The notes beneath the pieces were generated by a model. It was not told the origin of the DNA, did not search any database, and saw only the letters and a list, made by a program, of their open reading frames with translations. Shown here one piece after another: positions 3,441-53,206 of a DNA stretch of 64,000 nucleotides. Each line of letters starts with the position of its first letter. Position 1 is the stretch's first letter. The position numbers were made by a program, and so were the translations under genes. The DNA lies in assembly GCA_009784235.1 (NCBI GenBank), contig WRCC01000002.1, positions 89,687 to 153,686 on the forward strand, written 5' to 3'. The stretch comes from Alphaproteobacteria bacterium. Its GTDB lineage: Bacteria; Pseudomonadota; Alphaproteobacteria; Rs-D84.

Positions 3441-3445
3441 AATAA

Positions 3446-3566
3446 GTTCCCCTCCTTTGGAGGGGTGTTTTTTACGCGCAGCGTAAAAAATGGGGTGGTT
3501 TACCAAACTATCGGATGCACCGTAAACCACCCCGGCCTGCGGCCACCCCTCCAAAGGAGGGGAACT
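3446..3566. repeat. Palindromic element family P-A (full copy, nested hairpin)
   Basis: GTTCCCCTCCTTTGGAGGGGTG at 3446-3467 pairs with CCACCCCTCCAAAGGAGGGGAAC at 3544-3566. An inner GGGTGGTTTAC / GTAAACCACCC pair sits inside. A related partial copy lies inside mnmG at 35471..35514. Confidence 0.8.
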
Positions 3567-3621
3567 TTGACTTGTTGGAATCATAAAAACATGGTAAAAT
3601 ACAGCCAATAGAGGATTAATT

Positions 3622-5962: not shown

Positions 5963-6015
5963 ATAGGGGCGCATACTTGCGCCCTTTTGTTTTGGGCGCG
6001 AATACGCGCCCCTAC
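5963..6015. repeat. Palindromic element family P-C (intergenic copy, double hairpin)
   Basis: ATAGGGGCGCATACTTGCGCCC ttttgtttt GGGCGCGAATACGCGCCCCTAC. Two internal hairpins plus an outer TAGGGG/CCCCTA pairing. Copies also lie in metG (7493..7538) and mnmG (34925..34990). Confidence 0.8.
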
Positions 6016-6060: not shown

Positions 6061-6137
6061 GGACGCGTAGCTCAGTTGGTTAGAGTATCTCCTTGACATG
6101 GAGGGGGTCGGAAGTTCGAGTCTTCTCGCGTCCACCA
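6061..6137 (+). tRNA. tRNA-Val (anticodon GAC)
   Basis: Cloverleaf folded by hand. Acceptor stem GGACGCG/CGCGTCC. Anticodon loop TTGACAT. T-loop TTCGAGT. 3' CCA encoded. Confidence 0.85.
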
Positions 6138-6199
6138 CAATTTGGGATGAAAGATGAATGTTTCATCTTTCGCCCTTTTATTTTTTTACGGGTGAAATT

Positions 6200-7957
6200 A
6201 TGGCCAAAAAATACCTTATATCTTCTGCATTACCTTATGTGAACAATATTCCACATATCGGGAATTTTGTGGGCAGTGTTTTGCCCGCCGATGTATATGC
6301 GCGGTTTATGCGCGCGCGTCATGGTGCGGAAAATGTCTTGTTTGTATGCGGCGCGGACGCGCACGGCACGCCGATTATTGTCAGCGCGAAAAAAGAGAGT
6401 ATGTCGGTCGAAGCATTAGTTGAAAAATACCACGCGATGCATTCCAAGATTTTTAATGATTTCAAAGTTTCTTTTGATGGTGGATATGGTTCGACACATA
6501 CGGAATTGCAGACAAAATTGGTTCATGATTTATTTACTGCGCTGGATAAAAATGGATTTGTCGAAGAAAAGACTACAATTCAGCCATTTTCAATCGATGA
6601 TAATATGTTTTTGGCTGACCGCCAGATAGAAGGTACTTGCCCGAAATGCGGCGACCCGCGTGCACGCGGCGACCAGTGTGATAAATGTGGCGAACTGCTG
6701 GACCCGGCGGATTTGATAAATCCATGTGTTGCGGATACAGGCAGCAAAAACATCGAAATGCGGGAAACAAAAAATCTTTTTTACCGTGCAGATTTGGTCA
6801 AAGATGACGTGAAAAAATGGGTTTTGGATACGGCCGAAAAAAATAAATGGTCACCGTCCGCGATTTCCGCCACGAAAAAGTATTTAACCGAAGATGTGCC
6901 AAATCCGTCGATTACACGCGATTTGCCATGGGGAATTCCGGTGAATAAACCCGGATATGAAAATAAAGTATTTTATGTCTGGTTTGATGCGCCATGGGGC
7001 TATATCTCGATTTCACAAGCAGCGCGACCAATCGCGCCGGAGCAAGGCGAAGGCGGAGAATCGCGCCGTAGCGATAGTGTAGGCGGATGGGCGGATTGGT
7101 GGCATGGCGGTGATAATTGCCATTATGCGCAATTTATGGGCAAAGATAATATAAAGTTTCATTCGCTGTTTTTCCCGGGGCAAGAGATTGCATGGCGGGA
7201 CGGAAATTGGAAAAAAGTCGATTTGTTAAAAGGACTTAATTTCCTGAATTTCGAAGGCGCGAAGATTTCAAAGTCCGCGGGTCACGGAATATTTTTGGAC
7301 GCGGCATTGGTGGATGCGCCGTCGGATGCATGGCGTTATGCTTTGATGGCAAGCGCGCCCGAAAGCGATGATACAGATTTCACAATCCAGCGATTTGCGG
7401 ATATCGTGAACAAAGACCTGAACGGGATGCTGGGCAATTTTGTGTCGCGTGCAACGAAATTGAGCGAGAAAAATTTTGGGAATACAGTTCCCGTAGGGGC
7501 GCATAGTTGCGCCCCAGGGCGCGAATACGCGCCCCTACGGGAATTGGAACAATCAATCAATTTCCGTCTGGCTGAATTAACTGATGCGTTGGAATCTTGC
7601 GAATTTCGTAAATCCGTGAACGCTTTGCGCGAATTATGGGCCGTCGGAAATGAATTTATGGCGAAAATGGAACCGTGGTCTATGGTCAAAAACGGCGATA
7701 TAGATGGTGCGGCGGCGGTTCTGAATGAATGTTTCCAATTGATAGATTTATATGCACGCGTATCTGCGCCGTTCATACCGGATGCAGCGACAAAAATGCA
7801 AAATATATTCGGCACTAAACGCGATTTGTCATGGCCGATTGAATACGAGCGCCGTGTTGAATCCGGCGAATTGTTCACCATTCCGGAAAACCTTTTTGAA
7901 AGAATCGACACCGATAAGGTCGAAAGCATGACCGCGAAATATGTTAAAAAATCATAA
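6200..7957 (+). CDS. metG: Methionyl-tRNA synthetase
   Basis: ISSALPYVNNIPHIGNFVGSVLPADVYARF class-I HIGH region. Zn-binding CPKCG...CDKCG knuckle. Carries an in-frame P-C palindromic insertion at 7493..7538 encoding VGAHSCAPGREYAPLR. Confidence 0.9.
   Translation: MAKKYLISSALPYVNNIPHIGNFVGSVLPADVYARFMRARHGAENVLFVCGADAHGTPIIVSAKKESMSVEALVEKYHAMHSKIFNDFKVSFDGGYGSTHTELQTKLVHDLFTALDKNGFVEEKTTIQPFSIDDNMFLADRQIEGTCPKCGDPRARGDQCDKCGELLDPADLINPCVADTGSKNIEMRETKNLFYRADLVKDDVKKWVLDTAEKNKWSPSAISATKKYLTEDVPNPSITRDLPWGIPVNKPGYENKVFYVWFDAPWGYISISQAARPIAPEQGEGGESRRSDSVGGWADWWHGGDNCHYAQFMGKDNIKFHSLFFPGQEIAWRDGNWKKVDLLKGLNFLNFEGAKISKSAGHGIFLDAALVDAPSDAWRYALMASAPESDDTDFTIQRFADIVNKDLNGMLGNFVSRATKLSEKNFGNTVPVGAHSCAPGREYAPLRELEQSINFRLAELTDALESCEFRKSVNALRELWAVGNEFMAKMEPWSMVKNGDIDGAAAVLNECFQLIDLYARVSAPFIPDAATKMQNIFGTKRDLSWPIEYERRVESGELFTIPENLFERIDTDKVESMTAKYVKKS
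7493..7538. repeat. P-C palindromic element inserted in-frame in metG
   Basis: GTAGGGGCGCATAGTTGCGCCCCAGGGCGCGAATACGCGCCCCTAC with extended flanks ttccc.../...gggaa. Near-identical to the intergenic copy at 5963..6015. Confidence 0.8.
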
Positions 7958-10548: not shown

Positions 10549-10620
10549 GTAGGAAGTTTGAAGGTTGAAGTAGGAAGATTATTAATAATTTCTTCAAGCC
10601 TCAACCTTACTACTTCAAAC
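10547..10620. repeat. Long imperfect inverted repeat with AAGTTTG-like motifs, likely a terminator after fabG
   Basis: GTAGGAAGTTTGAAGGTTGAAGTAGGAAGA...TCTTCAAGCCTCAACCTTACTACTTCAAACTTT. The motif matches heptamer family H4. Confidence 0.5.
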
Positions 10621-10626
10621 TTTATT

Positions 10627-14257: not shown

Positions 14258-14269
14258 AATAAAAAACAG

Positions 14270-14343
14270 TGGAGGCCTGGGTCGGAATCGAACCGGCATA
14301 GACGGATTTGCAATCCGCTGCATAACCACTCTGCCACCAGGCC
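14270..14343 (-). tRNA. tRNA-Cys (anticodon GCA)
   Basis: GGCCTGG...TTGCAAA anticodon loop. Discriminator U + CCA. Near-identical to E. coli tRNA-Cys through the anticodon and T arms. Confidence 0.85.
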
Positions 14344-14442
14344 ACCGTTGGCATAACATAGGGCATTAAACCCTACTTTTCAACTTAAAAATTTCTGGAA
14401 ATTCGTTTTTTATGATATAATATTCAAGCCGAGAGAATTTTC

Positions 14443-22026: not shown

Positions 22027-22070
22027 AGTTGTCATTGCTTCGCGTTCGCTCGCAATGACAACTCTTTTTA
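22027..22070. repeat. Palindromic element family P-D (short copy), also a dnaQ terminator
   Basis: AGTTGTCATTGCTTCGCGTTCGCTCGCAATGACAACT followed by a T run. Shares the TGTCATTGC...GCAATGACA arms with 40243..40393 and 48353..48445. Confidence 0.7.
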
Positions 22071-25921: not shown

Positions 25922-26755
25922 ATGAAGAAATTATTGTGGACTTTTTACTTTTTACTTTTTGCTGTGCCTGCAAATGCAGGTACAGTTGTTGCATCCATAA
26001 ACGGTACGCCGATTACGGATACGGATGTGACCGCGCGCACGCGACTGATGTCTTTCCAAGGGCAATCCGGAACGGATAATCGCCGCCGCGCGCTATCGAA
26101 TATTATCGATGACCATATTAAATTGGCATACGCGGAAAGCATGCGCATTGTCCCAGCGGACAGCGATGTAAAAACTGAATTCGAAGGCATTCAGCGCAGC
26201 GGGTTTGACGCATCAAAATTGACGGCCAGTGATACTGCAATGCTGACCACCGCTGTGCGTGCTAATATCGCGTGGCAAATGGTAATTGGTCGCACAATTA
26301 TGCCAACCATTGATGTTACCGATGAAGACATTGCGACCGAACGCCGTGAATTGGCCCGTGAACGCGGATTGCCGATTGAAATGACATTTATTCGCCTGGT
26401 TGATATACCAACGGATGTTGCATCGCGTCTGACGCGCCCATCATCTTGTGACGGCGCGATGGATATGGCGCGTGATTTGGGTGGCTGGCCACAGCGTATG
26501 ACTGTGCTGCAATACGAATTGTCTGCGGATGTGCGCACCGTTTTGGTTGATTTGGCGCCGATGACTTGGTCGCGCCGGATTGATGGCAATGTATTCTTGG
26601 TATGCAGCACAAAAAGAACCAAAGAATGGGGACAATTGGACGACATTATAAAACAAAACGCGATGTTTCGCCGTGCATCATTCCAAGCAGACCAGCAATT
26701 AAAACAATTGCGCCGCCGCGCAGTAATAGTAATCACTGATGACAGATATAAATAA
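25922..26755 (+). CDS. SurA N-terminal-domain chaperone-like protein (no obvious PPIase domain)
   Basis: Signal peptide. SurA_N-like region (INGTPITDTDV...). Short at 277 aa. Position downstream of lptD. Confidence 0.55.
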   Translation: MKKLLWTFYFLLFAVPANAGTVVASINGTPITDTDVTARTRLMSFQGQSGTDNRRRALSNIIDDHIKLAYAESMRIVPADSDVKTEFEGIQRSGFDASKLTASDTAMLTTAVRANIAWQMVIGRTIMPTIDVTDEDIATERRELARERGLPIEMTFIRLVDIPTDVASRLTRPSSCDGAMDMARDLGGWPQRMTVLQYELSADVRTVLVDLAPMTWSRRIDGNVFLVCSTKRTKEWGQLDDIIKQNAMFRRASFQADQQLKQLRRRAVIVITDDRYK

Positions 26756-27800
26756 ACCAATTTTATTCAATATGTCGGCGGGCGAACTGGAACAGTTTGT
26801 TGTCGGATTGGCCCAGCCTAAATTCCGCGCAAAACAAATCGCGGAATGGCTGGGCCGTGGTGCACCGGATTTTTCAGTTATGAAAAATCTGCCGGAAAAT
26901 TTGCGAAAAGATTTGGATGCAGCCGCGCGTACAATGCCCGTCGAAATTGTTAAAAAACTGGAATCATCAGACGGCGCGACAACAAAGTTTTTATTAAAAC
27001 TGAATGATAATGAACAAATTGAAACTGTTCTGATGCGGACGACGTATGGTAACAGCGTATGTGTATCGTCCCAGGCCGGATGTGCAATGGGGTGCAAATT
27101 CTGTGCATCAACATTGCTGGGCCTGCGTCGAAATTTAACAATGAATGAAATGATTGCCCAGGTTTTGGTTGCACAATGGGTGTTGCGTACAAATCACGAC
27201 ATTAAACCAAACGGCGACGCAAATAATAACGATGTATCGCATATTGTCGTTATGGGTACAGGCGAACCATTGCAGAATATGGAAAATCTGAAAGGGTTTT
27301 TGGAATACGCGAATTCAAAACTGGGTATTTCTTGGCGGCGGATGACAATATCAACATGTGGCATTGTGCCAGGTATCAATGAATTGACACAGTGGGGTCG
27401 GCCGGTAAACCTGGCTATTTCATTGCACGCACCAAATGATGAATTGCGCACCAAATTAATGCCAATTAATAACAAATATAAAATTAGTGATGTTATGGAT
27501 GCGGCATACGCACACGCAGACAAAACCGGTCGCCAATTGATGATTGAATATATATTATTGGCCAGCGTAAATGATTCCCAAGAAATCGCCGAAGAATTGT
27601 CCGCTCTGCTGGCTGGAAAGAATGTTATGGTGAATATAATTCCATGGAATGCGGTAACCGAACGCGAATTCAGCGCACCGTCGGGCAATGCAGTTCACCG
27701 GTTCCAAGATATTTTAATCAAAAATAAAATTCACACGCGGATTCGCCGTGAACGTGGTGCTGATATCGGTTCGGCTTGCGGCCAGTTGCGTATTAAATAA
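26739..27800 (+). CDS. rlmN: 23S rRNA m2A2503 / tRNA m2A37 methyltransferase RlmN (radical SAM)
   Basis: CVSSQAGCAMGCKFCAS radical-SAM cluster motif. RlmN-specific flanks. Confidence 0.85.
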   Translation: MTDINKPILFNMSAGELEQFVVGLAQPKFRAKQIAEWLGRGAPDFSVMKNLPENLRKDLDAAARTMPVEIVKKLESSDGATTKFLLKLNDNEQIETVLMRTTYGNSVCVSSQAGCAMGCKFCASTLLGLRRNLTMNEMIAQVLVAQWVLRTNHDIKPNGDANNNDVSHIVVMGTGEPLQNMENLKGFLEYANSKLGISWRRMTISTCGIVPGINELTQWGRPVNLAISLHAPNDELRTKLMPINNKYKISDVMDAAYAHADKTGRQLMIEYILLASVNDSQEIAEELSALLAGKNVMVNIIPWNAVTEREFSAPSGNAVHRFQDILIKNKIHTRIRRERGADIGSACGQLRIK

Positions 27801-31752: not shown

Positions 31753-33924
31753 TTATTTCTTCTTTTCTTCGCCGGTTTTCTGGTCAATTCCAACCATGCT
31801 GAAACGCGTTTTTCCGCGTTTATCAACGCCCAGATATTTCACGAATACCTTGTCGCCTTCTTTCAATTTAGCATCTTCGATTTTAGCCAATCTTTCGCCG
31901 GTGATTTCAGAAATATGAACCAAAGATTCAAATGTTCCGTTCATGATTTTCACGAAAATTCCGAAATCTTTCATACCGGATATGACGCCTTCGTAAATCA
32001 TGCCGACTTCTGGTTCTGCAACGATGGCTTTGATTTTTTCGACTGCCAAATCTTTGTCCGCAATGTCTGTGTACATGATTTTCACAGTACCATCATCCGA
32101 CAAATCAATGGTGGTATTGGTTTCAGCGGTCAATGCTTTGATAACTGAACCACCTTTACCAATTACTTCGCGGATTTTGTCCGGATGGATTTTCATGAGG
32201 TATGCCTGTGGTGCGTGTTCAGACAATTCTTTGCGTGGTGCTTTGATTGTCTTGTTCATGACACCCAGGATGTGCATGCGGCCTTCTTTTGCTTGGGCCA
32301 ATGCTTTTTCCATGATTTCGAATGTAATCGATGTGATTTTAATATCCATCTGCAACGAAGTGATACCTTTGTCTGTACCGGCAACCTTGAAATCCATGTC
32401 GCCCAAGTGGTCTTCGTCGCCCATAATATCAGACAAGACTTCGTATTCGTTGCCTTCCTTGATAAGGCCCATCGCGATACCCGCAACCGGACGCATCATC
32501 GGAACGCCACCGTCCATCAGCGCCAATGTTGCGCCACAGACCGTCGCCATCGAAGACGAACCATTAGATTCCAGAACATCCGACACGATGCGAATTGTAT
32601 AATCAAAATCAGACTTTGCCGGCAACATCGGTGATACCGCGCGCCATGCCAGGTTTCCATGACCCAATTCGCGGCGTTTCGGCGCACCAATGCGGCCGGT
32701 TTCGCCAACCGAAAACGGCGGGAAATTATAGTTCAAGATAAATGGCTGTTCCGATTTGCCGTCCATCAAATCCAATGGCAATGCATCCGACGCACCGCCC
32801 AGGGTCACTGTGACCAGGGCTTGCGTTTCGCCGCGTGTGAACAGCGCGGAACCGTGCGTGCGCGGCAATACGCCGACTTCGCATTCAATTGCGCGAACAG
32901 TTTTGGAATCACGGCCGTCGATACGTGGCTTTTTATCCAATATCGCGCGACGCATGATGCGCGCGGTAATCGATTCGCAGATTTCGTTCGAATATGCTTT
33001 CAACAAATTTTTATCGCCATCTGGGAATACGGTTAATGCTTTTTCTAATGCTTTGGCTTTCACAGCATCCAGCGCAGAATAACGGTCTTGTTTAATGGCA
33101 ATAGACAATCCAGCGGCAATTTCGTCCGCAAATTGTTCTAATTCAGATGTCAGCGCGACGTATTCCGGTGCGCGTTCGCGGACCGCCCATTTTTCTTTGC
33201 CGACTTTGGATGCAAGCTCGTTAATTGCGGCAATTACCGGCTGAATCGCGTCGAAACCGAATTTGACAGCTTCCAATGTAACTTTTTCATCCAATTCGCC
33301 GATTTCAGATTCAACCATCAAAACGCCGTCTTTGGTTCCGGCAACGACCAAGTCCATTTCCAAATCGCCAATTGTTTTGACGGCTGGATTCAAGATAAAT
33401 TTGCCATCTGCATATCCAACGCGTGCGGCACCAATCGGGCCCAAGAACGGAACACCGGAAATCGCCAATGCGGCAGATGATGCAATCATTGCGATAATGT
33501 CGGGTGAATGCTTTTTATCGTATGAAAAACAAGTCGCGACAATCTGTGTGTCATTCGTGAATGTTTCCGGGAACAGCGGACGTATCGGTCGGTCAATCAT
33601 GCGCGCAGTTAAAACTTCGTGCAATGCGGATTTGCCTTCGCGGCGGTCGCGTGAACCCGGGATTTTGCCGGCCGCAGAAAATTTTTCGACATAATCAACG
33701 GTCAGCGGGAACCAGTCTTGGCCTTCGACAACATTTTTCGATGACACAACAGTCGCCAAGACCATGGTTTCGCCGATTGTCGCCATAACAGAACCGGTGG
33801 CTTGCTTTGCAAAGCGGCCAGTTTCCAGCGTTAATTTTTCGCCGCCAAAGTCCAATGACACGGAAACGGGATTGTTCAAAGCGTTTTTATTGGCCGCCTT
33901 GTCGCCAAAAAGTCCAAATAACAT
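31753..33924 (-). CDS. pnp: Polynucleotide phosphorylase
   Basis: Two RNase PH domains, KH and S1 at the C-terminus (GKGGSVIKALTAETNTTIDL...). No rpsO upstream. Confidence 0.9.
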   Translation of the reverse strand: MLFGLFGDKAANKNALNNPVSVSLDFGGEKLTLETGRFAKQATGSVMATIGETMVLATVVSSKNVVEGQDWFPLTVDYVEKFSAAGKIPGSRDRREGKSALHEVLTARMIDRPIRPLFPETFTNDTQIVATCFSYDKKHSPDIIAMIASSAALAISGVPFLGPIGAARVGYADGKFILNPAVKTIGDLEMDLVVAGTKDGVLMVESEIGELDEKVTLEAVKFGFDAIQPVIAAINELASKVGKEKWAVRERAPEYVALTSELEQFADEIAAGLSIAIKQDRYSALDAVKAKALEKALTVFPDGDKNLLKAYSNEICESITARIMRRAILDKKPRIDGRDSKTVRAIECEVGVLPRTHGSALFTRGETQALVTVTLGGASDALPLDLMDGKSEQPFILNYNFPPFSVGETGRIGAPKRRELGHGNLAWRAVSPMLPAKSDFDYTIRIVSDVLESNGSSSMATVCGATLALMDGGVPMMRPVAGIAMGLIKEGNEYEVLSDIMGDEDHLGDMDFKVAGTDKGITSLQMDIKITSITFEIMEKALAQAKEGRMHILGVMNKTIKAPRKELSEHAPQAYLMKIHPDKIREVIGKGGSVIKALTAETNTTIDLSDDGTVKIMYTDIADKDLAVEKIKAIVAEPEVGMIYEGVISGMKDFGIFVKIMNGTFESLVHISEITGERLAKIEDAKLKEGDKVFVKYLGVDKRGKTRFSMVGIDQKTGEEKKK

Positions 33925-34117: not shown

Positions 34118-34465
34118 GTGAGAAACACGATAAAACAACATAAAGACTTCCTGATACCGGACGATGCGCCGCGCTTTGTCACGGATTTTTTTATCGTAAA
34201 ATCGCGCCCGACAAAATGGCCGAATGACGCACGATATGGTTTGACGGCGACAAAAAGAACATTCAAATTGGCGCATGACCGCAATCGTGCAAAGCGTCTG
34301 GTTCGTGCATGGCTGCGCGAATGCGAATCTTTGATGTCGCCGGAAATGGATTATGTTTTTATTATGCGTGCACCGATTCTGGTCGCGAAAAAACCCGATG
34401 GTATCGCGCAAATTACGCGCGCACTGAAAAGGCTAGCCATTATTGGTGCGCCGAACCCGGCGTAA
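34118..34465 (+). CDS. rnpA: RNase P protein component
   Basis: KRTFKLAHDRNRAKRLVRAWLRE core motif. GTG start at 34118. Not preceded by rpmH. The 3' end overlaps the mnmG 3' end convergently by ~33 bp. Confidence 0.75.
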   Translation: MRNTIKQHKDFLIPDDAPRFVTDFFIVKSRPTKWPNDARYGLTATKRTFKLAHDRNRAKRLVRAWLRECESLMSPEMDYVFIMRAPILVAKKPDGIAQITRALKRLAIIGAPNPA

Positions 34466-36280
34466 AATATTTATAATGCCCGCGGGCGTTATGCCTGGAA
34501 TACGTGATAATGCGGCGATTGTTTCCGGACGCGCGGCCGATAATTTTTCTTTCAGTTCATTGGTCAATCCGGACATTGCAGCATAATCAAAACCCATCGG
34601 AATTTTAATATCTTTATCGCGGTTATATCGTTCAATTTCACGTTGCGCCCGCGCAATATATCCAGCGTAAAATCTATCATTTTGATTTATGATTTCGGCC
34701 TTTTCAGCGATATTTTTTTCATAATGTTCGCCTGTAATCAATCCGGCTGCAACCGCCATTGGTCCCAGGCGCGTGATTGCATTATCCGCGCGCAGGCTCA
34801 ATCGGTATTCCGCGCGGGATGTGAACATTCGATAAGGTTCATCTACGCCCAGCGTCGTAATATCATCGATTAGTACACCGATATATGAATTGGTTCGGTC
34901 GATTTGTAGGGGTGCGCACCCACCCATTGAAATCGCAGATTTCAATGGGACCCGGGATTCGCGCCCCAGGGCGCAAGTATGCGCCCCTACAAAAGCCGCG
35001 GCGTTCGCACCCGCGACGATACCTTGGGCTGCGGCTTCTTCGTACCCCGATGTACCATTAATTTGCCCAGCGAAAAATAATCCCGGAATGTCTTTGGATT
35101 CCAATGTTGACTTTAACACACGCGCATCAATCGCATCGTATTCGATTGCATATCCATATCGTTCGATACGGGCGTTTTCCAGGCTTGGAACACTGCGAAT
35201 AAATTTATCTTGGACTGCCGCGGACATACTGGTCGATAAACCATTTGGATAAATTAATTTGCCATTTGCTGTCTCTGGCTCCAAAAATATTTGGTGTGAA
35301 CTGTGTTCTGGGAATCGCATAACTTTGTCTTCCAAGGATGGGCAATACCGCGGCCCGGTACCAACAATTTCACCGTTATACATCGGCGCGTCGGTAATAG
35401 TATCGCGAATAATTTGGTGCGTTTCAGATGTAGTGCGGGTGATATAGCAATTGGTCGGTCCAAAGTTTGGGTAAACCACCCCGCCCTTTGGGCATCCCTC
35501 CAAAGGGGGGGAACTAAACCACGGATGATTCGTATCCCCTGGCTGTGCCTCGCACACCGAAAAGTCAATACTGTCCGCATAAATACGCGCGGGTGTTCCG
35601 GTTTTCAGACGTAATAATTTGAATCCGGCGCGTTCAAGCGTCGCGGAAATATTTTTATCGGCCGTCTGATATGTGCCGTCGTCTTGCAATCGGCCAGATT
35701 CGATTTTTTCGCATCCGCGATGGACCAAACCCCGCAAAAAAGTCCCGGTCGTAATAACAATTGCCGTCGCACGATATTTTCCGTTTATGATTTTGTTTTC
35801 GATATCCAAAGTTTCGACGGATTCATAAATTATTTCGGGATAGACTATATCTCCCCCTCCTTGAGGGGGGCCGTCTGCGAAGCAGATCGGGGGGAGCTCC
35901 CCCTCGTCGCCCTTTGGGCGACACTCCCCCTCAAGGAGGGGGAGATATAGTCCGAGCAGATTTTTCACTGCATCCCGATACTTATCCCGATCGATTTGTG
36001 CGCGTAATGCCTGGGTCGCGGGGCCGTGCGAAGCATTTAAAACACGGAAATGAATACCGGCCATATCGGCGGCACGCGGCATTATTCCGCCCAAGGCGCC
36101 CAATTCCGCAACCAATTGCGATTTTCCAGGCCCACCAATCGATGGATTGCAAGACAGCGCGCCCAAATCATCCGGCGATTTGGTCAAAAGCAGGGTGGCC
36201 GCACCCATACGTGCTGCTGCCGCGGCTGCTTCGACCCCGGCATGTCCGCCGCCAATAACAATTACATCAAATTCTTTCAT
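34433..36280 (-). CDS. mnmG: tRNA uridine-5-carboxymethylaminomethyl synthesis enzyme MnmG (GidA)
   Basis: MKEFDVIVIGGGHAGVEAAAAAARMG FAD motif. GPRYCPSLEDKVMRF. Carries three in-frame palindromic-element insertions (P-C, P-A partial, P-B). Confidence 0.9.
   Translation of the reverse strand: MKEFDVIVIGGGHAGVEAAAAAARMGAATLLLTKSPDDLGALSCNPSIGGPGKSQLVAELGALGGIMPRAADMAGIHFRVLNASHGPATQALRAQIDRDKYRDAVKNLLGLYLPLLEGECRPKGDEGELPPICFADGPPQGGGDIVYPEIIYESVETLDIENKIINGKYRATAIVITTGTFLRGLVHRGCEKIESGRLQDDGTYQTADKNISATLERAGFKLLRLKTGTPARIYADSIDFSVCEAQPGDTNHPWFSSPPLEGCPKGGVVYPNFGPTNCYITRTTSETHQIIRDTITDAPMYNGEIVGTGPRYCPSLEDKVMRFPEHSSHQIFLEPETANGKLIYPNGLSTSMSAAVQDKFIRSVPSLENARIERYGYAIEYDAIDARVLKSTLESKDIPGLFFAGQINGTSGYEEAAAQGIVAGANAAAFVGAHTCALGRESRVPLKSAISMGGCAPLQIDRTNSYIGVLIDDITTLGVDEPYRMFTSRAEYRLSLRADNAITRLGPMAVAAGLITGEHYEKNIAEKAEIINQNDRFYAGYIARAQREIERYNRDKDIKIPMGFDYAAMSGLTNELKEKLSAARPETIAALSRIPGITPAGIINILRRVRRTNNG
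34925..34990. repeat. P-C palindromic element (variant) inserted in-frame in mnmG
   Basis: CCCATTGAAATCGCAGATTTCAATGGG + GCGCCCCAGGGCGCAAGTATGCGCCCCTAC. Encodes VGAHTCALGRESRVPLKSAISMGGCAP, compared with VGAHSCAPGREYAPLR in metG. Confidence 0.75.
35471..35514. repeat. P-A palindromic element (partial) inserted in-frame in mnmG
   Basis: GTAAACCACCCCGCCCTTTGGGCATCCCTCCAAAGGGGGGGAAC. Encodes SSPPLEGCPKGGVVY in the FS...CYIT loop. Confidence 0.75.
35846..35950. repeat. P-B palindromic element (105 bp) inserted in-frame in mnmG
   Basis: TATATCTCCCCCTCCTTGAGGGGG...CGTCGCCCTTTGGGCGAC...CCCCCTCAAGGAGGGGGAGATATA. Encodes ~35 extra residues (LPLLEGECRPKGDEGELPPICFADGPPQGGGDI). Confidence 0.8.
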
Positions 36281-36443: not shown

Positions 36444-39400
36444 ATGAAATACCCAGAAACAAAACCAAAGGCAAATTTTCCGGAAATGGAACACCAGATT
36501 TTAAAATTCTGGCGTGACCATGATATTTTCCACAAATCTTTGGATGCAACGGCGAACGGCGCGCCGTTCACTTTCTATGATGGTCCGCCATTTGGAAATG
36601 GGTTGCCGCATTGGGGGCATTTGGGTGTTTCGGCCGTCAAAGACATGGTTCATCGTTATCAAACAATGCGCGGTCGTCACGTGGAACGCGAATTGGGTTG
36701 GGATTGTCATGGGTTGCCGGCGGAAAATTCAGTTGAAAAAGCACAAAATCGCAAATCCAAGGATATCGTTGAATCCGATGGCATGGCGGCGTTCTGTGAG
36801 ATGTGTCGCGTTGATGTGCAAACGTACGTCAAAGAATGGGAACGCTTTATTGAACGCATGGGTCGTTGGGTGGATATTGGTGATGATTTGGGATACCGCA
36901 CAATGGATAAAAATTATATGGAATCCATGCTGTGGACCATCAAGGAATTGCGTAACAAAGGTTTGCTGTACAAAGATTATCGCGTGAATCCGTTCGATTG
37001 GGTAAATGGCACGGTGCTGAGCAATTCCGAAGCATCCAGCGATTACCGAGAAGTGATTGATGACGCGATAACAGTCTGGTTTGAATTGATGGATGGTCGT
37101 CGCATTTTGGCATGGACAACAACGCCGTGGACTTTGCCGGGAAATTCAGCATTGGCTGTAAATCCGAAATTAACGTATGCCGTGATGCGCGATAGCGATG
37201 GTGCGGAATATATCATCGCAGAATCACGTTTGGGGAATTACGAAAAACAATTGGCGAATGCCGAACGTGTCGGCACGGTTATGGGCGCGGATTTGGTTGG
37301 TTTAAAATATAAACCGCTGTTTGATTATTATAACGATGCAAAATTGCATAACATTATCGCGGGCGGATTTGTGTCGGACGATTCGGGTACCGGTATCGTT
37401 CATATCGCGCCGGCGTTCGGTGAAGACGATTTCTGGGCGCTGAAAGACAATGACCCAGAATTTCCAGTAATTGTTAATGTTGATAATTATGGAAATTTTG
37501 ATGCGACTGTGCGTGATTTTTCGGGTGAAAATATTTTTGCCGCAAATCCAAAAATTATTGCTAACTTGAAAGAACGCGGGCACCTGGTTAAAAAAGAACA
37601 ATACAAGCACGCATATCCGTATGGCGACCGCAGTAAAGAAAAATTAATCTATCGCGCGACGGAATCCTGGTACATCAATGTTCCGAAAATTAAAGACAAA
37701 TTATTAATAAATAATGAATTGGTTACATGGACATCGGCCGGCGAACGTTTCCGCGCTTGGATTGAAAACGCGCGGCCTTGGTCGATTTCGCGCAATCGTT
37801 TCTGGGGCGTGCCATTGCCAATTTGGGCGCGCGGCGATGAATATAAAATATTTGGTTCAATCGCTGAATTGCAGGAATTTTTTGGCGTTGAAATTCACGA
37901 CCTGCATCGGCCGACGATGGATGCTTTGACCAAAGACGGCTGGACGCGTATTCCAGATGTTCTGGATTGCTGGGTCGAGTCCGGTTCAATGCCGTGGGCG
38001 TCGCTGCATTATCCGTTTGACCCATCATCGCACAGTGATTTCGATGCTGAATTACCAAAAAACTTTCCGGCAGATTATATTATCGAAGGCCAAGACCAAA
38101 CCCGTGGATGGTTTTATTCGCTGATGGTCCTTGCGACCGCATTGTTCGATAAACCCGCGTTCATAACCGTGTCTGCGAACGGCATGGTTGTTGATGAACA
38201 CAAGAAAAAGTTTTCAAAATCCGTTGGCAATTATGTAAACCCAGAACAACAGATTGAACAGTTCGGCGCGGATGCGATTCGCTTGTTTATACTGGGTTCC
38301 AATTTTATGAAAGCCGAACCAGTTCCAATGGATAAAGAAGGCAAAGTGTTTGGTGAGCCAACAAAAAATATCCTGGTGCCGCTGTGGAATGCTTATCATT
38401 TCTTTACGCTTTACGCCAACGCCGGCGCGGTAACCGCGCAGGAGACAGTAGACAGTAGACAGTCAGAAAATGTTCTGGATAAATACATATTGGCCGAACT
38501 TAACGACTTGACTGGCGTGGTGCGTGGTGCGCTGGATGAATATAAACCGGACGCTGCGCTGCGCGGCATGACGTCGTTCTTGGAAATCTTAAATAATTGG
38601 TATATCCGTCGTTCGCGGGAGCGTTTCTGGAACGAAGAACAATCCGCGTTCGACACACTGCATTTCGTGTTGGTCAAATTCACAAAATTACTGGCACCAT
38701 TTGCACCATTTGTAAGTGACCATATTTTCAGAAACTTAACGGACCCGGAAAATAAAAAAATGGATACTTCCGTGCATCTTGAAAAATTCCCGGAAAATGA
38801 ATCACATGCATTTGACAGCAAGGAATCATTCATTCTGGATACAATGCGATATATTCAGCAAATTGTTTCAGTTGGAAAACAGCTGCGTGAAAAACATGCA
38901 CTAAGAAACAGGTTGCCGTTAAATAATATTTCAATTTATGGCACATCGATAAATCTTGGCGATTATGCACTGGATATAATCAAAGGCGAATTGAATGTAA
39001 AAAATGCTGAAAATAAAACTACTGGTCTGGAAAACGTTGCTGATTCGTTTGTATATCTTATCACGCCGAAAATCGGTGCGCGGTTGGGTGCAGGCTTAAA
39101 AGAAATCATGACTGCATCAAAACAGCCAGGATTTGACCCGGTGGCACATGGATTGTTGCCCGATGAATACGAAATGCGCCTGACCGTAAAACCCGGAATC
39201 ACCGGGGCGGCGCTGCCGGATAATACCGCGGTGGTTGTTTTGGATACAAATGTGACACCGGAATTATTGGCGACAGGATTGGCCAACGATGCACTTCGTT
39301 TTATCCAAGATACGCGCAAAGCAATGGACTTGGATGTTTCCGACCGGATAACTTTGACCGTGTCGGGCGATATGGAATTGTTGACCGCGCTGGATACACA

Positions 39401-39515
39401 CAAAGTACGCATCATGGCGGACGCCTTGATTACCGATATGCACCGCGGCACGGCGGATGAATTCCACACAGAAATCGAAGGTCATAAATTTGGAATAAAG
39501 ATTACGAAAGTATGA
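36444..39515 (+). CDS. ileS: Isoleucyl-tRNA synthetase (type 2, eukaryote-like)
   Basis: PFTFYDGPPFGNGLPHWGHLG HIGH region. KMSKS as KFSKSVGNY. 1023 aa. GACAGTA heptamer array at 38444..38464 in frame. Confidence 0.9.
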   Translation: MKYPETKPKANFPEMEHQILKFWRDHDIFHKSLDATANGAPFTFYDGPPFGNGLPHWGHLGVSAVKDMVHRYQTMRGRHVERELGWDCHGLPAENSVEKAQNRKSKDIVESDGMAAFCEMCRVDVQTYVKEWERFIERMGRWVDIGDDLGYRTMDKNYMESMLWTIKELRNKGLLYKDYRVNPFDWVNGTVLSNSEASSDYREVIDDAITVWFELMDGRRILAWTTTPWTLPGNSALAVNPKLTYAVMRDSDGAEYIIAESRLGNYEKQLANAERVGTVMGADLVGLKYKPLFDYYNDAKLHNIIAGGFVSDDSGTGIVHIAPAFGEDDFWALKDNDPEFPVIVNVDNYGNFDATVRDFSGENIFAANPKIIANLKERGHLVKKEQYKHAYPYGDRSKEKLIYRATESWYINVPKIKDKLLINNELVTWTSAGERFRAWIENARPWSISRNRFWGVPLPIWARGDEYKIFGSIAELQEFFGVEIHDLHRPTMDALTKDGWTRIPDVLDCWVESGSMPWASLHYPFDPSSHSDFDAELPKNFPADYIIEGQDQTRGWFYSLMVLATALFDKPAFITVSANGMVVDEHKKKFSKSVGNYVNPEQQIEQFGADAIRLFILGSNFMKAEPVPMDKEGKVFGEPTKNILVPLWNAYHFFTLYANAGAVTAQETVDSRQSENVLDKYILAELNDLTGVVRGALDEYKPDAALRGMTSFLEILNNWYIRRSRERFWNEEQSAFDTLHFVLVKFTKLLAPFAPFVSDHIFRNLTDPENKKMDTSVHLEKFPENESHAFDSKESFILDTMRYIQQIVSVGKQLREKHALRNRLPLNNISIYGTSINLGDYALDIIKGELNVKNAENKTTGLENVADSFVYLITPKIGARLGAGLKEIMTASKQPGFDPVAHGLLPDEYEMRLTVKPGITGAALPDNTAVVVLDTNVTPELLATGLANDALRFIQDTRKAMDLDVSDRITLTVSGDMELLTALDTHKVRIMADALITDMHRGTADEFHTEIEGHKFGIKITKV
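38444..38464. repeat. Heptamer array H3 (GACAGTA x3) in-frame in ileS
   Basis: gacagta gacagta gacagtc. Encodes ETVDSRQS. Confidence 0.8.
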
Positions 39516-40240
39516 AGTTAACACCAAATATTTACTTCACCAAAGTTCCGCCGGCGCTGGATATGTCTATCCGGTCGGAATTGTATTATACCAACGAATT
39601 TACCTTCGCGGTGGCGGTGATTTTGTCGGCGCAAGCCACCGATAAAAAAGTCAACGAAGTCACGCCGGCGTTATTCGAAATTGCCGACACACCGGAAAAA
39701 ATGTTTGCGCTGGGCATCGACGGCCTACGCGAACATATCAAAGTAATTTCGTTTTTTAATAACAAAGCGAAAAATATTATTGGGTCGAGCAAGATGCTTG
39801 TCTCCCCCTCCTTGAGGGGGAGTGTCGCCCAAAGGGCGACGAGGGGGAGCTCCCCCCAGTCGGCTATGCCGACAGCCCCCCTCAAAAAGGGGGGCACAGG
39901 AGAATGGTTCTTCCCTACCAAATACCACAACCGCGATGAATTGTTGAAACTGCCGGGCATTGGCCAAAAGACTGCAAATGTTATTATGAATGTTTTATGG
40001 GGTGCGCCGCTGATTGGCGTTGATACTCATGTTTATCGTAACGCGCATCGATATGGGTGGGTTGCGGAATCCGATAATACGCCGGAAAAAGTCGAAGTGA
40101 AATTATTACAAATTATTCCAAAGAAATATCACGGAATTGTGAATCACGTTATGGTCTTGCACGGGCGGTATATTTGCAAAGCGCTGCGTCCGTTGTGTGA
40201 CCAATGTCCCGTTGCGAAATATTGCCCTGTCCGGAAGTAA
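39512..40240 (+). CDS. nth: Endonuclease III (Nth) with in-frame P-B insertion
   Basis: HhH-GPD motifs LPGIGQKTANVIMNV. Fe-S cluster C-x6-C-x2-C-x5-C (CKALRPLCDQCPVAKYC). ~32 aa insertion before the HhH. Confidence 0.85.
   Translation: MKLTPNIYFTKVPPALDMSIRSELYYTNEFTFAVAVILSAQATDKKVNEVTPALFEIADTPEKMFALGIDGLREHIKVISFFNNKAKNIIGSSKMLVSPSLRGSVAQRATRGSSPQSAMPTAPLKKGGTGEWFFPTKYHNRDELLKLPGIGQKTANVIMNVLWGAPLIGVDTHVYRNAHRYGWVAESDNTPEKVEVKLLQIIPKKYHGIVNHVMVLHGRYICKALRPLCDQCPVAKYCPVRK
39801..39896. repeat. P-B palindromic element (96 bp) inserted in-frame in nth
   Basis: TCTCCCCCTCCTTGAGGGGGAGTGTCGCCCAAAGGGCGACGAGGGGGAGCTCCCC... The first 57 bp are identical to the reverse complement of the mnmG copy. 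Confidence 0.8.
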
Positions 40241-40242
40241 AA

Positions 40243-40393
40243 CTGTCATTGCGAGGAACATAGTGACGAAGCAATCCAATAAATAATATACTTGTTCATT
40301 ATAATGGACATCACATCTATGTTTTAAAGTTGTCTGCTATAGTAGACAACTTTTTAAATTACTGGATTGCTTCGCATGCGCTCGCAATGACAG
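40243..40393. mobile_element. MITE-like element (family P-D)
   Basis: ~35 bp terminal inverted repeats CTGTCATTGCGAGGAACATAGTGACGAAGCAATCCA / TGGATTGCTTCGCATGCGCTCGCAATGACAG flank an AT-rich 85 bp core. The core contains palindrome AAGTTGTCTGCTATAGTAGACAACTT. No coding capacity. Confidence 0.6.
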
Positions 40394-40396
40394 CTA

Positions 40397-41626
40397 TTAT
40401 TCATATCTCAGCGAATCAATCGGATTCAACCGCGCGGCTTTCAGTGCCGGAAACACACCCGATGCAATACCAACGACCACGGCGACGATTACGGATAGTA
40501 TTACCGCATATATACTTATCGGTGCGGTATAATTCAATAACATTGGCACGAATATTTTTGATAATACAATGCCCAGTACCATGCCGAACATACTGCCCAT
40601 AAATGAAATCAAAACCGATTCGGACAAGAATTGAACAATTATGTGTTTTTCTTTGGCGCCGATGGCTTTCCTGATTCCGATTTCGCGTGTGCGTTCTGCG
40701 ACCGACACCAGCATCATATTCATAATCCCAATTGACCCAACCAACAGCGATACTGACGCAATCGACACCAACAACATCCGCATAAATCCGGCGATGGTGT
40801 TCATTGTTTCCATAACCTGGCGCATGTCCATAATCTGAAAATCATCTGGTTCATCATCACGCAATCTGTGACGTTCGCGCAGTATCGTCGTAATCTGTTC
40901 AGTTACCAAATGATTGTCCGCGTCCGGAAATAATCGCAGCATAATCATTTGGACCGCGTCCGGAAAACGTCCACCCCATATACGTTTGGTCAGCGTGGTC
41001 AGCGGGATAATAAGCATATCATCTTGGGAACCCATCATAGAATCGCCGCGTTCGCGCAGCATGCCAATAATAACAAACGGTACGTTGTTAACACGTACGG
41101 TTTGTCCGACTGGATTTTCCGGCAAATCAAGTTCGGCGGCAGTCTTTGGCCCGATTACAGCAAACGTTGATGCATTGCGAAGCGCGCTTTGGTCGAAAAA
41201 AGTACCGTATTCCATTTCAACATTTTGCACTGTTGCCCAATCTGGATGTGTTCCGATAACCTGGGTTGTCCAGTTGCGGTTACCGAACACGGCCTGGGTT
41301 GAAATTTGACGCACTGGTGCGACCGCGTTAACATCAGGCAAACGGCCCAGCACGGCCGCAGATTGCACGGTAAGGGTTTGACGCATGCCGGTGCGAATGC
41401 CACCGGTTTGCGCCGCGCCTGCGCGAACGATAATTGTATTAGTGCCCAGCGAAGAAAACTGGTCATCGATTTGTTTCTGAACCGTTTCGCCAAGTGTCAC
41501 CATGACCACAACGGCCATAACACCAATAATAATGCCCAGAATTGTTAATATGGAACGAACTTTGTTGCCGGAAATCGACAACCATGATTCTTTGAGTATA
41601 TCGTTGAATGTCATTGCTCTCTCCAT
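40397..41626 (-). CDS. ABC transporter permease (MacB/FtsX family, standalone permease)
   Basis: N-terminal TM. Large periplasmic domain. Three C-terminal TMs (FtsX). The start codon lies inside an H1 heptamer array. Confidence 0.75.
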   Translation of the reverse strand: MERAMTFNDILKESWLSISGNKVRSILTILGIIIGVMAVVVMVTLGETVQKQIDDQFSSLGTNTIIVRAGAAQTGGIRTGMRQTLTVQSAAVLGRLPDVNAVAPVRQISTQAVFGNRNWTTQVIGTHPDWATVQNVEMEYGTFFDQSALRNASTFAVIGPKTAAELDLPENPVGQTVRVNNVPFVIIGMLRERGDSMMGSQDDMLIIPLTTLTKRIWGGRFPDAVQMIMLRLFPDADNHLVTEQITTILRERHRLRDDEPDDFQIMDMRQVMETMNTIAGFMRMLLVSIASVSLLVGSIGIMNMMLVSVAERTREIGIRKAIGAKEKHIIVQFLSESVLISFMGSMFGMVLGIVLSKIFVPMLLNYTAPISIYAVILSVIVAVVVGIASGVFPALKAARLNPIDSLRYE

Positions 41627-41708
41627 TTATGATTTCTGATTTATGATTTATGGTTGCATAGGCTGATACAGCGTCAAACCAAATCATAAATCAGAAATCA
41701 GAAATCTT
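41625..41708. repeat. Inverted pair of H1 heptamer arrays at a same-strand gene junction
   Basis: atttatg atttctg atttatg atttatg (41625-41652), 27 bp near-palindromic spacer, then aaatcat aaatcag aaatcag aaatctt (41681-41708). Contains the permease ATG and the thioesterase stop. Confidence 0.85.
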
Positions 41709-48347: not shown

Positions 48348-48352
48348 GAATT

Positions 48353-48445
48353 ACTATTCACTGGATTGCTTCGCGTACGCTCGCAATGACAAAAATAGTG
48401 TTGTCATTGCGAGGAGTGAAACGACGAAGCAATCCAGTGAATAGT
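48353..48445. repeat. P-D palindromic element (arms abutted)
   Basis: ACTATTCACTGGATTGCTTCGCGTACGCTCGCAATGACA...TGTCATTGCGAGGAGTGAAACGACGAAGCAATCCAGTGAATAGT. Same arms as the MITE-like element at 40243..40393 but with no core. Confidence 0.7.
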
Positions 48446-48472
48446 AAAAAACCGCCGATTGGCGGTTTTTAT
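48446..48472. terminator. Bidirectional terminator
   Basis: AAAAAACCGCCGATTGGCGGTTTTT. Confidence 0.7.
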
Positions 48473-49185
48473 TATATTGTCATCCCGTTGGTGACATAAA
48501 GAGTTCCATCGTCCGACCAGATTTTGCCACCCGATTCGTTTACAATCAATTCCCCGGCGGCCAATTCGGCATAATCCAATGGTTCGGACACAAATGCATC
48601 GAATTTTCCAGATGCAACCCATGCCAAATCCAGGGCGGGGCAGCCAGTAACACGAAAGTTTGAAGTTTGAAGTTTGAAGTTTGAAGTTTGGGAGTTCAAC
48701 CCAACCATCAAATCACGAGTTTCAACTTTTTCTTTGGATACATGAATTCTGGTTGAATGGAATGCATTGAAAATAAATGCACCATGCCCCAGTTCCGCAT
48801 AATACAAGCGGTCTTCAATCGGTGCATAAATCAGTGCGATTTTGGTTTCATCGTTTTGGCGCAGCGCCAACGATATCGCAAAATGTGGATTTCCGCGCAC
48901 GAAATTCGCAGCACCGGACAATGACAAAACAAATTCCGAAATCCCGCCGCCATCACGCGATACGTTCGGTGTCAAAATGCCGGCAGTCGGCCGCACCAGC
49001 GACAAATCGGATAGAATCATTTCTTCGATTCGCGTTTGTGCTTTATTTACAAAATCGGTCGCGGATTTTAATGATTGTTGCAGATTTTCAACTTCGGAAA
49101 AATCACGACGCAAACCAGTCGCAGTCCGCTGCAACGCAGCGAACATCTGGTTTAATTCCGAAGAGCCCTTGATTACATTTTCCAT
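48472..49185 (-). CDS. suhB: Inositol monophosphatase (SuhB) homologue lacking catalytic acidic residues
   Basis: IMPase fold motifs AAGELIVNESGG and DLAWVASGKFDAF retained. Metal-binding EE and DPxDGT replaced (PNVSRDGGGISE; LSLSGAANF). AAGTTTG heptamer array at 48656..48683 in frame. Confidence 0.65.
   Translation of the reverse strand: MENVIKGSSELNQMFAALQRTATGLRRDFSEVENLQQSLKSATDFVNKAQTRIEEMILSDLSLVRPTAGILTPNVSRDGGGISEFVLSLSGAANFVRGNPHFAISLALRQNDETKIALIYAPIEDRLYYAELGHGAFIFNAFHSTRIHVSKEKVETRDLMVGLNSQTSNFKLQTSNFRVTGCPALDLAWVASGKFDAFVSEPLDYAELAAGELIVNESGGKIWSDDGTLYVTNGMTI
48656..48683. repeat. Heptamer array H4 (AAGTTTG x4) in-frame in suhB
   Basis: aagtttg aagtttg aagtttg aagtttg, then degenerate ggagttc. 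Encodes the duplicated peptide QTSNFKLQTSNFR. Confidence 0.85.
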
Positions 49186-52427: not shown

Positions 52428-52862
52428 ATGAACGAACCGTTTGTATCAATTAATGAATTATCGAAACGTCTGGGCGTGCCGGCGCATACTTTGCGCTATT
52501 GGGAAAAGGCATTCGGGGGTGCGGTGCGTCCGACCACCGGCGCGGGTGGCCGGCGTTATTACCGCGACGAAGATGTGCAAAAAATCACGATGATTCAGGA
52601 TTTATTGTATAACCAGAAATACACAATTGCCGGTGTGAAGAAATTGTTGAATGATGGTGTCATCCCGCAGAGCCGCAAAGCGGCGAGTGCGGGACCTGGT
52701 CAAAACCAGGCGGTAGAAAATATTTTCGACGGCAAACATTTAGATGCGACCAAGTGCAACAAGGTCCCGCACAATTTTGTGTCACAAAATTTGCGGGATG
52801 ACACACAAATCAACGCTGCGCTTGATTTACTGCGACTCGCACGGGCGGAAATTTCAGAATAA
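52428..52862 (+). CDS. MerR-family transcriptional regulator
   Basis: HTH INELSKRLGVPAHTLRYWEKAFG. Confidence 0.6.
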   Translation: MNEPFVSINELSKRLGVPAHTLRYWEKAFGGAVRPTTGAGGRRYYRDEDVQKITMIQDLLYNQKYTIAGVKKLLNDGVIPQSRKAASAGPGQNQAVENIFDGKHLDATKCNKVPHNFVSQNLRDDTQINAALDLLRLARAEISE

Positions 52863-52897
52863 AAACAAAGGGCGCAAATATGCGCCCTTTGTTTTTA
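52861..52897. terminator. Bidirectional terminator
   Basis: AACAAAGGGCGCAAATATGCGCCCTTTGTT flanked by A and T runs. Confidence 0.7.
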
Positions 52898-53206
52898 TTC
52901 TGTTACACATTCGATTGTTTCAGAATCATCAATAATCAAAATCCAATCTTTGCCTTTGTTCCAGGCGACGATTGCAACGCCTTCGAACGTGCCGGCATAT
53001 CGCACGCCAGATGCACTTTCCGTTTTAATTAATGTGATTCCTTGCATATCGACGGTGGCGACAATTTTATCTTTGAATATTTTTGCCGCAATATCAAAAT
53101 CGCCACATTTCATTTTTACGGTTTCCGCTGGTTGTTCAGTGCACGCAGCCAACAAGCCCATAGCAAAAAGTCCACAGACCATAGTAAATAGTAATTGTTT
53201 TCTCAT
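52895..53206 (-). CDS. MliC-family lipoprotein (lysozyme-inhibitor-like)
   Basis: Lipobox LLAACTE. Conserved SASGVRY and WNKGKDW..C motifs of the MliC family. Confidence 0.5.
   Translation of the reverse strand: MRKQLLFTMVCGLFAMGLLAACTEQPAETVKMKCGDFDIAAKIFKDKIVATVDMQGITLIKTESASGVRYAGTFEGVAIVAWNKGKDWILIIDDSETIECVTE

Follow-up and report, generated by a model that had tools for sequence, protein, structure and literature searches.

Three families of repeated hairpin element inserted in-frame in an intact mnmG gene of an alphaproteobacterium

The mnmG gene and its three inserts

The stretch of alphaproteobacterial DNA analysed here (64,000 nucleotides of contig WRCC01000002.1, assembly GCA_009784235.1, positions 89,687 to 153,686 of the forward strand; below, the window) carries an mnmG gene whose coding sequence is lengthened in-frame at three points by copies of repeated hairpin elements, named P-A, P-B and P-C. 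The gene is intact, and the loop holding each insert is a short one in E. coli MnmG and in the insert-free orthologues.

34433..36280, minus strand: mnmG, intact coding sequence, 615 amino acids, identified by its open reading frame (ORF), TIGR00136, the match to E. coli MnmG and an AlphaFold2 model

The start, the ATG at 36280, was chosen by comparison with homologues (N-terminus MKEFDV; the gene opens MKEFDVIVIGGGHAG...). The protein scores 628 bits against the NCBIfam model TIGR00136 (mnmG_gidA), whose cut-off is 525, matches the E. coli MnmG structure 3cp2 with E=9.6e-143 and keeps all residues invariant in its clade, including the flavin adenine dinucleotide (FAD) motif GGGHAG and the cysteines C44 and C313, which correspond to C47 and C277 of E. 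coli. By the cut-off of the hidden Markov model, the FAD motif, the two catalytic cysteines and the fold it is thus a member of the MnmG family. A search of a large protein collection returned an identical protein, from a metagenome-assembled genome (MAG) labelled 'Alphaproteobacteria bacterium' (contig of 498,326 bp), and thousands of relatives below it. The closest relatives show 62-69% identity in BLASTP and 68-75% in the multiple alignment, and most of them have 543-550 residues; compared with a clade norm of about 547 residues the window protein is about 68 residues longer, at three loops. The reading made earlier from the sequence alone (the sequence-only reading) had assumed a norm of about 620-630 residues and counted about 616 residues plus the inserts, which proved wrong, as the 615 residues include the inserts. 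Its description of the gene as essential was likewise overstated, since mutants of E. coli in this gene are viable. Three assemblies, two from ENA and one from JGI, encode the identical protein, and the inserts are therefore not an assembly artefact.

The inserts were called by aligning the window MnmG with 18, then 53 relatives. All three are in-frame, and none of them occurs in the insert-free orthologue P0008, so that the alignment with alphaproteobacterial orthologues, proposed earlier as a check, came out in favour of insertion. In the following rows, E. coli numbering is corrected for the 20-residue tag of the structure chains (C67 = C47), and domain limits are those of PMC12397908.

Site 1: 35850..35945, minus strand, P-B, 96-bp core equal to 32 codons, residues 113-144 (LPLLEGECRPKGDEGELPPICFADGPPQGGGD); E. 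coli ~112-124, FAD-binding domain
Site 2: 35471..35515, minus strand, P-A unit of 45 nucleotides (nt), residues 256-270 (SSPPLEGCPKGGVVY); E. coli ~228-241, Insertion domain 2
Site 3: 34906..34990, minus strand, P-C, 85 nt, GTAG...CTAC, a dimer of repetitive extragenic palindromic (REP) units whose spacer is structured, residues 431-458 (VGAHTCALGRESRVPLKSAISMGGCAPL); E. coli ~395-401, junction of the FAD and helical domains

In an AlphaFold2 model built from 54 sequences (predicted template modelling score 0.83) the sole long segments with a predicted local distance difference test value (pLDDT) below 50, all of them coil, are residues 113-144, 256-275 and 439-454, that is, the three inserts. 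The model resembles the solved MnmG structures 9hiq_C and 2zxh (template modelling score ~0.8), and it presents the inserts as long disordered surface loops, the MnmG fold being normal in all other respects. In the alignment with solved structures the inserts fall at gaps, E. coli MnmG being short there; together with the three loops of pLDDT<50 this agrees with the earlier placement of the inserts. Thus, as far as the model can tell, all three lie at fold-compatible surface loops, as is typical of Rickettsia palindromic elements (RPEs). None of the sites touches the MnmE-contact residues or MnmG-specific motif 1 as defined in PMC12397908. Examples of peptides that span insert junctions are LLGLYLPLLEGECRPK and AAAFVGAHTCALGR.

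Two further features of the gene may be mentioned. MnmG is short in the whole clade (window 34433-36280 and proteins P0002-P0120), which is without part of the C-terminal helical domain, approximately residues 485-546 of the E. coli protein, and this clade-wide gap takes in MnmE-contact residues 516-517. At its 3' end mnmG converges with rnpA (plus strand, ORF 34118-34465), the two ends overlapping by 33 nt at 34433-34465.

The repeat families P-A, P-B and P-C

Each of the inserts also occurs elsewhere in the window, either between genes or within other genes, as had been noticed from the sequence alone; blastn-short searches of the window located the following copies in nth, metG and spacers.

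39801..39897, plus strand: second copy of P-B, in-frame in nth (endonuclease III, coding sequence 39512-40240), read SPSLRGSVAQRATRGSSPQSAMPTAPLKKGG
3444..3567, no strand assigned: full-length P-A palindrome, intergenic, 124 nt, with a 24-nt perfect terminal inverted repeat and inner hairpins
7493..7538, plus strand: P-C REP dimer, 46 nt, in-frame in metG (ORF 6158-7957), read VGAHSCAPGREYAPL, fold z -8.7
5963..6015, no strand assigned: P-C REP dimer, intergenic, directly upstream of the tRNA gene 6061-6134, fold z -6.6

P-B is the longest of the inserts. Positions 35861-35945 match 39801-39885 with 92% identity over 85 nt (E=5e-28), the repeat match reaching 39893. In the mnmG copy a perfect terminal inverted repeat of 27 nt (35843-35869 with 35926-35952) extends beyond the 96-bp core, and the interior consists of two unlike hairpins and the central palindrome GGGGAGCTCCCC. 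Both inner hairpins begin with CGTC on the plus strand (35872 CGTCTGCGAAGCAGATCG, 35905 CGTCGCCCTTTGGGCGAC), which makes them, with two P-B copies known, at most candidates for CGTC-tagged REPs, short stem-loops with this tetranucleotide at one end. Folded as single-stranded DNA and compared with shuffled controls, this copy reaches -50 kcal/mol (z -10.7) and is the strongest folding region of the entire window scan, the nth copy having z -7.4. The nth copy, too, is an insert relative to nth orthologues. It has the same orientation relative to its gene as the mnmG copy and is read in a different frame (SPSLRGSVAQRATRGSS... in nth, LPLLEGECRPKGDEGEL... in mnmG), from which it follows that no particular peptide is required. 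The P-B core had no match in JGI metagenomes, nor had P-B or the full P-A in 72,556 plasmids.

As for P-A, positions 35471-35515 match 3522-3566 with 87% identity over 45 nt (E=6e-7). The unit consists of GTAAACCACCCC, then GCCC-TTT-GGGC, A, (T/C)CCCTCC-AAA-GG(G/A)GGGG and AACT. The full copy at 3444-3567 folds with -52.9 kcal/mol (z -12.6), the 45-nt unit of mnmG alone with z just -2.2. In an alignment of 12 copies 97.7% of the pair cells of its two small hairpins are paired, with compensatory changes at three pairs, and the covariation score was reached by none of 500 shuffles. The unit occurs either solo or as an arm of the 124-nt palindrome, in contigs with a G+C content from 29% to 63%: it was found also in loci L001, L100 and L109-L118 of other genomes and, solo, in many unrelated genomes. 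To judge by these sequences, P-A is a widespread two-hairpin module backed by covariation. A solo unit was also seen inside an HsdM ORF (type I methylase, Pfam), at the same position in the metagenome contigs L113 (802-837), L114, L117 and L118, where G+C is 29-37%.

P-C has a different construction. It is made of two inverted REP units, each with GTAG followed by GGGCGCA-loop-TGCGCCC, i.e., a 7-bp GC stem and a loop of 4-5 nt. Positions 34957-34990 match 7493-7526 with 91% identity (E=3e-7) and are identical to 5964-5985 at 22 of 22 nt, the matches extending over 7493-7538 and 5964-6014. Five GTAGGGGCGCRTA heads are present in the 64 kb, compared with 0.09 expected from shuffles; four of them have the tetranucleotide GTAG and one ATAG, and they form three dimers, two of which are intragenic. 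The mnmG copy folds with z -7.5, and its spacer contains a nested hairpin (34923-34949). Considering the GTAG head, the short GC-rich stem-loop and the inverted pairing, P-C is by its sequence features a GTAG-headed REP dimer. The frame that contains the TAG of GTAG is closed, which fits the reading VGAHxCA...YAPL(Q) of almost all intragenic copies. Two candidates were rejected: the nested hairpin is not a separate repeat family, its sequence being unique to the mnmG locus, and 52855-52902, which resembles P-C only in the GGGCGCA stem, looks like a terminator.

The limits of the elements given earlier needed revision. For P-B (105 bp at 35846..35950) the element stands and its extent does not, the core being 35850-35945 and the inverted repeat 35843-35952; for P-C (34925..34990) the upper limit holds and the lower one moves to 34906; and the supposed 'partial' P-A is a complete copy of the 45-nt unit. 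The central claim, three different repeated palindromic elements in-frame within an intact mnmG, is borne out by the copies in the window, the open frame and the conservation of the invariant residues.

No Rfam family matches P-A, P-B or P-C. In-frame location in a conserved gene with the ORF kept, the behaviour known from RPEs and recognised as such in the sequence-only reading, is found three times in mnmG, once in nth and once in metG. Of the six reading frames of the elements, two to four are free of stops in the larger copies and five in the 45-nt P-A unit of mnmG.

Relatives, other genomes and the origin of the inserts

Orthologue DNA was compared for four mnmG genes. That of P0008 (termite-gut MAG WRKW01) has no inserts, while in P0002, P0004 and P0006 the very point of site 1 that P-B occupies in the window holds a P-A-like element (GAATTCCCCTTC...GAAGGGGAATT). 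At site 3, P0018 and P0006 have P-C-type elements with the same 3' junction, CCCCTAC|AA, as the window gene. A fourth loop is occupied in P0006, P0010, P0018 and P0066, and several inserts of relatives at sites 2 and 4 are hairpins with tandem-heptamer arms. In a neighbour-joining tree of gap-free columns every insert falls within one clade, whose mnmG orthologues carry inserts at up to four loops; the large clades with 547-residue proteins have none. To call three insertions in one gene unusual was therefore an overstatement. At locus L001 a P-A lies in an SMC/RecF-like gene and a P-C in argS; insertion of this kind thus runs through the lineage, with mnmG as a host that was used repeatedly and not as an exception.

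The pattern TAGGGGCGCATANTTGCGCCC, scanned in one genome per species, matched at least 99 stretches, whereas about one match is expected by chance (20 specified bases in 596 Gb, by our own arithmetic). The matches listed include dozens in the alphaproteobacterial MAG EPI_MAG_00286, others in the termite-gut MAGs WRJH, WRIM, WRHR and WRCO and in 'Rickettsiales bacterium' MAGs, as well as in cultured Rheinheimera and Arsukibacterium and in some contigs binned as Bacteroidales. A G precedes almost every listed match, so that, of more than 100 copies, nearly every one keeps the GTAG head; inverted pairs are frequent (L010, L037, L039, L055, L105 and others). The location of the exact 21-mers differs between the groups; in the rows below, which refer to the matches listed, a copy was counted as intragenic if it lay within an ORF of at least 150 amino acids and at least 120 nt from both ORF ends.

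Gammaproteobacteria: 0 of 35 in a long ORF
Contigs labelled Bacteroidales or Firmicutes: 0 of 13
EPI_MAG_00286: 5 of 42, most of these ORFs looking spurious; at least 42 exact copies, mainly extragenic
Termite MAGs: 9 of 22
'Rickettsiales' MAGs: 3 of 6
L001: 3 of 3
Window: 2 of 3

All four exact or near-exact copies of L001 are intragenic. Host genes in the alphaproteobacterial MAGs include, by Pfam, those for a TrmB-type methyltransferase, a PD-(D/E)XK nuclease, a MerR regulator, an amidase and a terminase, besides argS. The exact 21-mer with its GTAG head is also multicopy in Rheinheimera and Arsukibacterium (Gammaproteobacteria; scan loci L007-L105) and turns up in contigs from Bacteroidales, Phocaeicola, Porphyromonadaceae and Lachnospiraceae bins; this cross-phylum occurrence might reflect horizontal spread of REPs with RayT, convergence or mis-binning.

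When E. coli RayT was compared by phmmer with all ORFs of the fetched loci, two proteins were found:

L055 4508-5140, minus strand: RayT-type gene, E=5.6e-8 to E. coli RayT, Pfam Y1_Tnp
L039 794-1498, minus strand: RayT-type gene, found with the same query

Their homologues carry the JGI name 'REP element-mobilizing transposase RayT'. GTAG REPs of the P-C type lie on both flanks of both genes, and an in-frame P-C dimer also separates the HUH motif of each gene from the region of the catalytic tyrosine. According to the supplement of PMC7024585, the MAGs of L055 and L039 and the source of P0008 are placed in the 'Rs-B50 group', termite group (Alphaproteobacteria, Rhodospirillales); the assemblies of these MAGs have 0.72-1.02 Mb at 70-90% completeness.

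We suppose, with a probability of about 0.78, that mnmG has received three small non-autonomous mobile DNA elements, whose predicted translation gives extra surface loops. For P-C, a RayT would move the copies in trans by working on hairpins of single-stranded DNA, the mechanism proposed for REPs and REPINs, and P-A and P-B may have been spread by the same or another transposase. The insertions would land widely, selection sparing just those that are in-frame and in structurally permissive loops; this filtering would account for the presence of different families, from relative to relative, at the same four MnmG loops. Small (~1 Mb), probably host-associated genomes may allow mildly harmful insertions to persist, as in Rickettsia.

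Several observations weigh against this explanation. No RayT gene was found in the 64 kb of the window, and the best 120 homologues of RayT include none from the window's 498-kb contig. P-A and P-B have neither a GTAG head nor a known transposase, and P-B was found in two copies in total. With 68-75% identity to the window MnmG, the nearest orthologue free of inserts is too distant to fix the insertion junctions or any target duplications. Finally, the site 3 copies of P-C in three genomes could stem from one old insertion and not from separate hits.

The last point can be extended to the view that the site 1 and site 3 inserts are both old single insertions, inherited by the clade and later overwritten or diverged, instead of recent independent events. 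The window MnmG does group with P0002, P0004 and P0006, all with an insert at the exact site 1 point after LLGL, and it shares the site 3 family and 3' junction with P0018 and P0006. However, the P-B of the window is unlike the GLNSPSL...EGEF element that these relatives have at site 1, and its 92% identity to the nth copy of the same genome indicates recent copying; at site 3 the 5' junction differs by three codons, and an ancestral insertion there would demand many precise losses over the tree. We therefore regard common inheritance as rather doubtful, although it is the best of the alternatives.

Unlikely, and slightly more so, is the idea that P-A and P-B are classical miniature transposable elements with inverted repeats (MITEs) mobilised by a DDE transposase (e.g., IS630/Tc1-like, with TA as target) or products of recombination between copies, and not driven by RayT. 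The absence of a GTAG head from both elements and of RayT from the window would fit it, as would the perfect 27-nt terminal inverted repeat of P-B and the TATA on both its sides in mnmG, where the empty site would be GACTATA|TATAGTC. Yet the nth copy has no TA flanks, and the removal of exactly the 96-bp core restores G-L-Y-I-V-Y-P, with the loop length of orthologues free of this insert (P0008, and P0018, which has no P-B), whereas a duplication of 2 or 4 bp would break the frame. A TA or TATA target duplication thus finds no support in the nth copy or in the frame arithmetic, a net insert of 96 bp arguing against it. Moreover, this analysis found no DDE transposase whose ends match, and the compensatory changes that keep the small hairpins of P-A fit recognition of folded single strands.

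It is highly improbable that the inserts have been co-opted as functional surface peptides or as regulatory mRNA hairpins. They do persist in an otherwise conserved gene, identically in three assemblies, and their hairpins are very stable; but the reading frame of one and the same element changes from gene to gene, relatives hold other families at a given loop or, in many cases, none at all, and the inserts are modelled as disordered. That mnmG is a pseudogene, the outcome named at the outset as fatal to the insertion reading, or an assembly artefact, as three foreign insertions and strong, error-prone hairpins might suggest, is rejected in view of the open frame of 615 codons, the score above the curated TIGR00136 cut-off, the retention of all clade-invariant residues, the confidently modelled core and the identical sequence of three independent assemblies.

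The insertion of mobile hairpin elements, as preferred here, has well-documented precedents. In-frame RPEs are well known in Rickettsia, where some genes were hit more than once (PMC3733652, PMC10969869), and Di Nocera et al. (2013; PMC3733652) described REPs of the GTAG and CGTC classes within genes of Opitutus terrae, Thauera, Thioalkalivibrio and R. conorii, with inserts of 20-30 amino acids, host genes that include tRNA synthetase and pseudouridine synthase genes, and genes hit twice (uvrA, uvrB). Like RPE-1 to RPE-10, the present elements are palindromic repeats lying in-frame, and in a manner compatible with the fold, in housekeeping genes of a reduced alphaproteobacterial genome; the likeness drawn here is one of behaviour, and the host is not a Rickettsia, its relatives being MAGs of the termite-gut 'Rs-B50 group'. 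RPE-4 and RPE-6 were assigned to the CGTC-tagged class (PMC3733652), while P-C is GTAG-tagged. The earlier statement that these elements are a different set from those of Rickettsia is thus half right: it fails for P-C, which belongs to the known class of GTAG-tagged REPs with RayT.

With GTAG REPs and REPINs P-C shares the head, the 7-bp GC stem, the inverted dimers and, in related genomes, the many, mostly extragenic copies and the REP-flanked RayT; it differs in that two of the three window dimers are intragenic, in having no RayT in the window and in the REP dimer lying in-frame within the RayT gene itself in two related MAGs. The full P-A and P-B resemble bacterial MITEs (Correia/NEMIS, ERIC, RUP, Nezha) in size (100-125 bp), long terminal inverted repeats, absence of coding capacity of their own and the possibility of in-frame fusions. 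Unlike these, they have no consistent target-site duplication and no parent insertion sequence found, their interior is built from small hairpins independent of one another, and the P-A unit of 45 nt stands solo in many unrelated genomes.

The results thus add another alphaproteobacterial lineage with reduced genomes to Rickettsia, from which in-frame palindromic insertion is best known, and tie one of the inserted families, P-C, to the REP/RayT system. What is new is the host lineage, the element sequences P-A and P-B and the three hits in one gene; the principle is not, as intragenic REPs and RPEs, including double hits per gene, have already been published (PMC3733652). The reuse of four MnmG loops by unrelated elements provides a natural map of the tolerance for 15-35 extra residues. 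In annotation it should be kept in mind that such inserts make proteins longer and give low-complexity strings (VGAHxCAP...YAPLQ, PPLEGCPKGGVV), which should not be taken for new domains. On a speculative note, the Rs-B50-like gut lineage might be a second independent case, after Rickettsia, of several hairpin families (GTAG REPs, the multi-hairpin palindromes P-A and P-B, and heptamer-repeat hairpins) colonising coding genes at large scale, with loops reused as elements home to existing hairpins and not through selection alone, and with even the RayT gene hosting its own REP dimer.

Other repeats of the window

The window was scanned for folding in 90-nt windows with a threshold of more than 3 standard deviations below the mean energy. 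Thirteen regions pass, seven of which belong to the P-A, P-B and P-C families or to a hairpin family of the form CGAAGCAATCC...TGTCATTGCGAG, unrelated to these three and located in the spacers 22034-22069, 40244-40401 and 48351-48447, as well as in EPI_MAG_00286 (L029). The regions 26771-26890, 51931-52020 and 59511-59670 were rejected as palindromic elements, being GC-rich coding sequence; 32781-32880 was also flagged.

Period-7 arrays (3-5 copies) recur along the window, often as hairpins whose arms are complementary heptamer runs, the heptamer differing from locus to locus. Some lie inside ORFs, namely ileS, a UDG-family gene and a pseudouridine synthase gene.

Period-7 arrays, first half of the window: 3108-3134, 4730-4764, 5284-5362, 7949-7980, 10547-10622, 25940-25960
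Period-7 arrays, second half: 38439-38463, 41625-41706, 48656-48690, 53821-53860, 60575-60696, 61265-61300

The metG gene has a second in-frame insert (7030-7087) of 18 amino acids (IAPEQGEGGESRRSDSVG), which is missing from three orthologues. It is not a hairpin element, since 7031-7084 is a non-palindromic, 29-bp tandem duplication. The tRNA gene 14273-14343 (minus strand) overlaps the 5' end of the RecF/SMC-like ORF 13211-14359, the true start of which is probably located further downstream.

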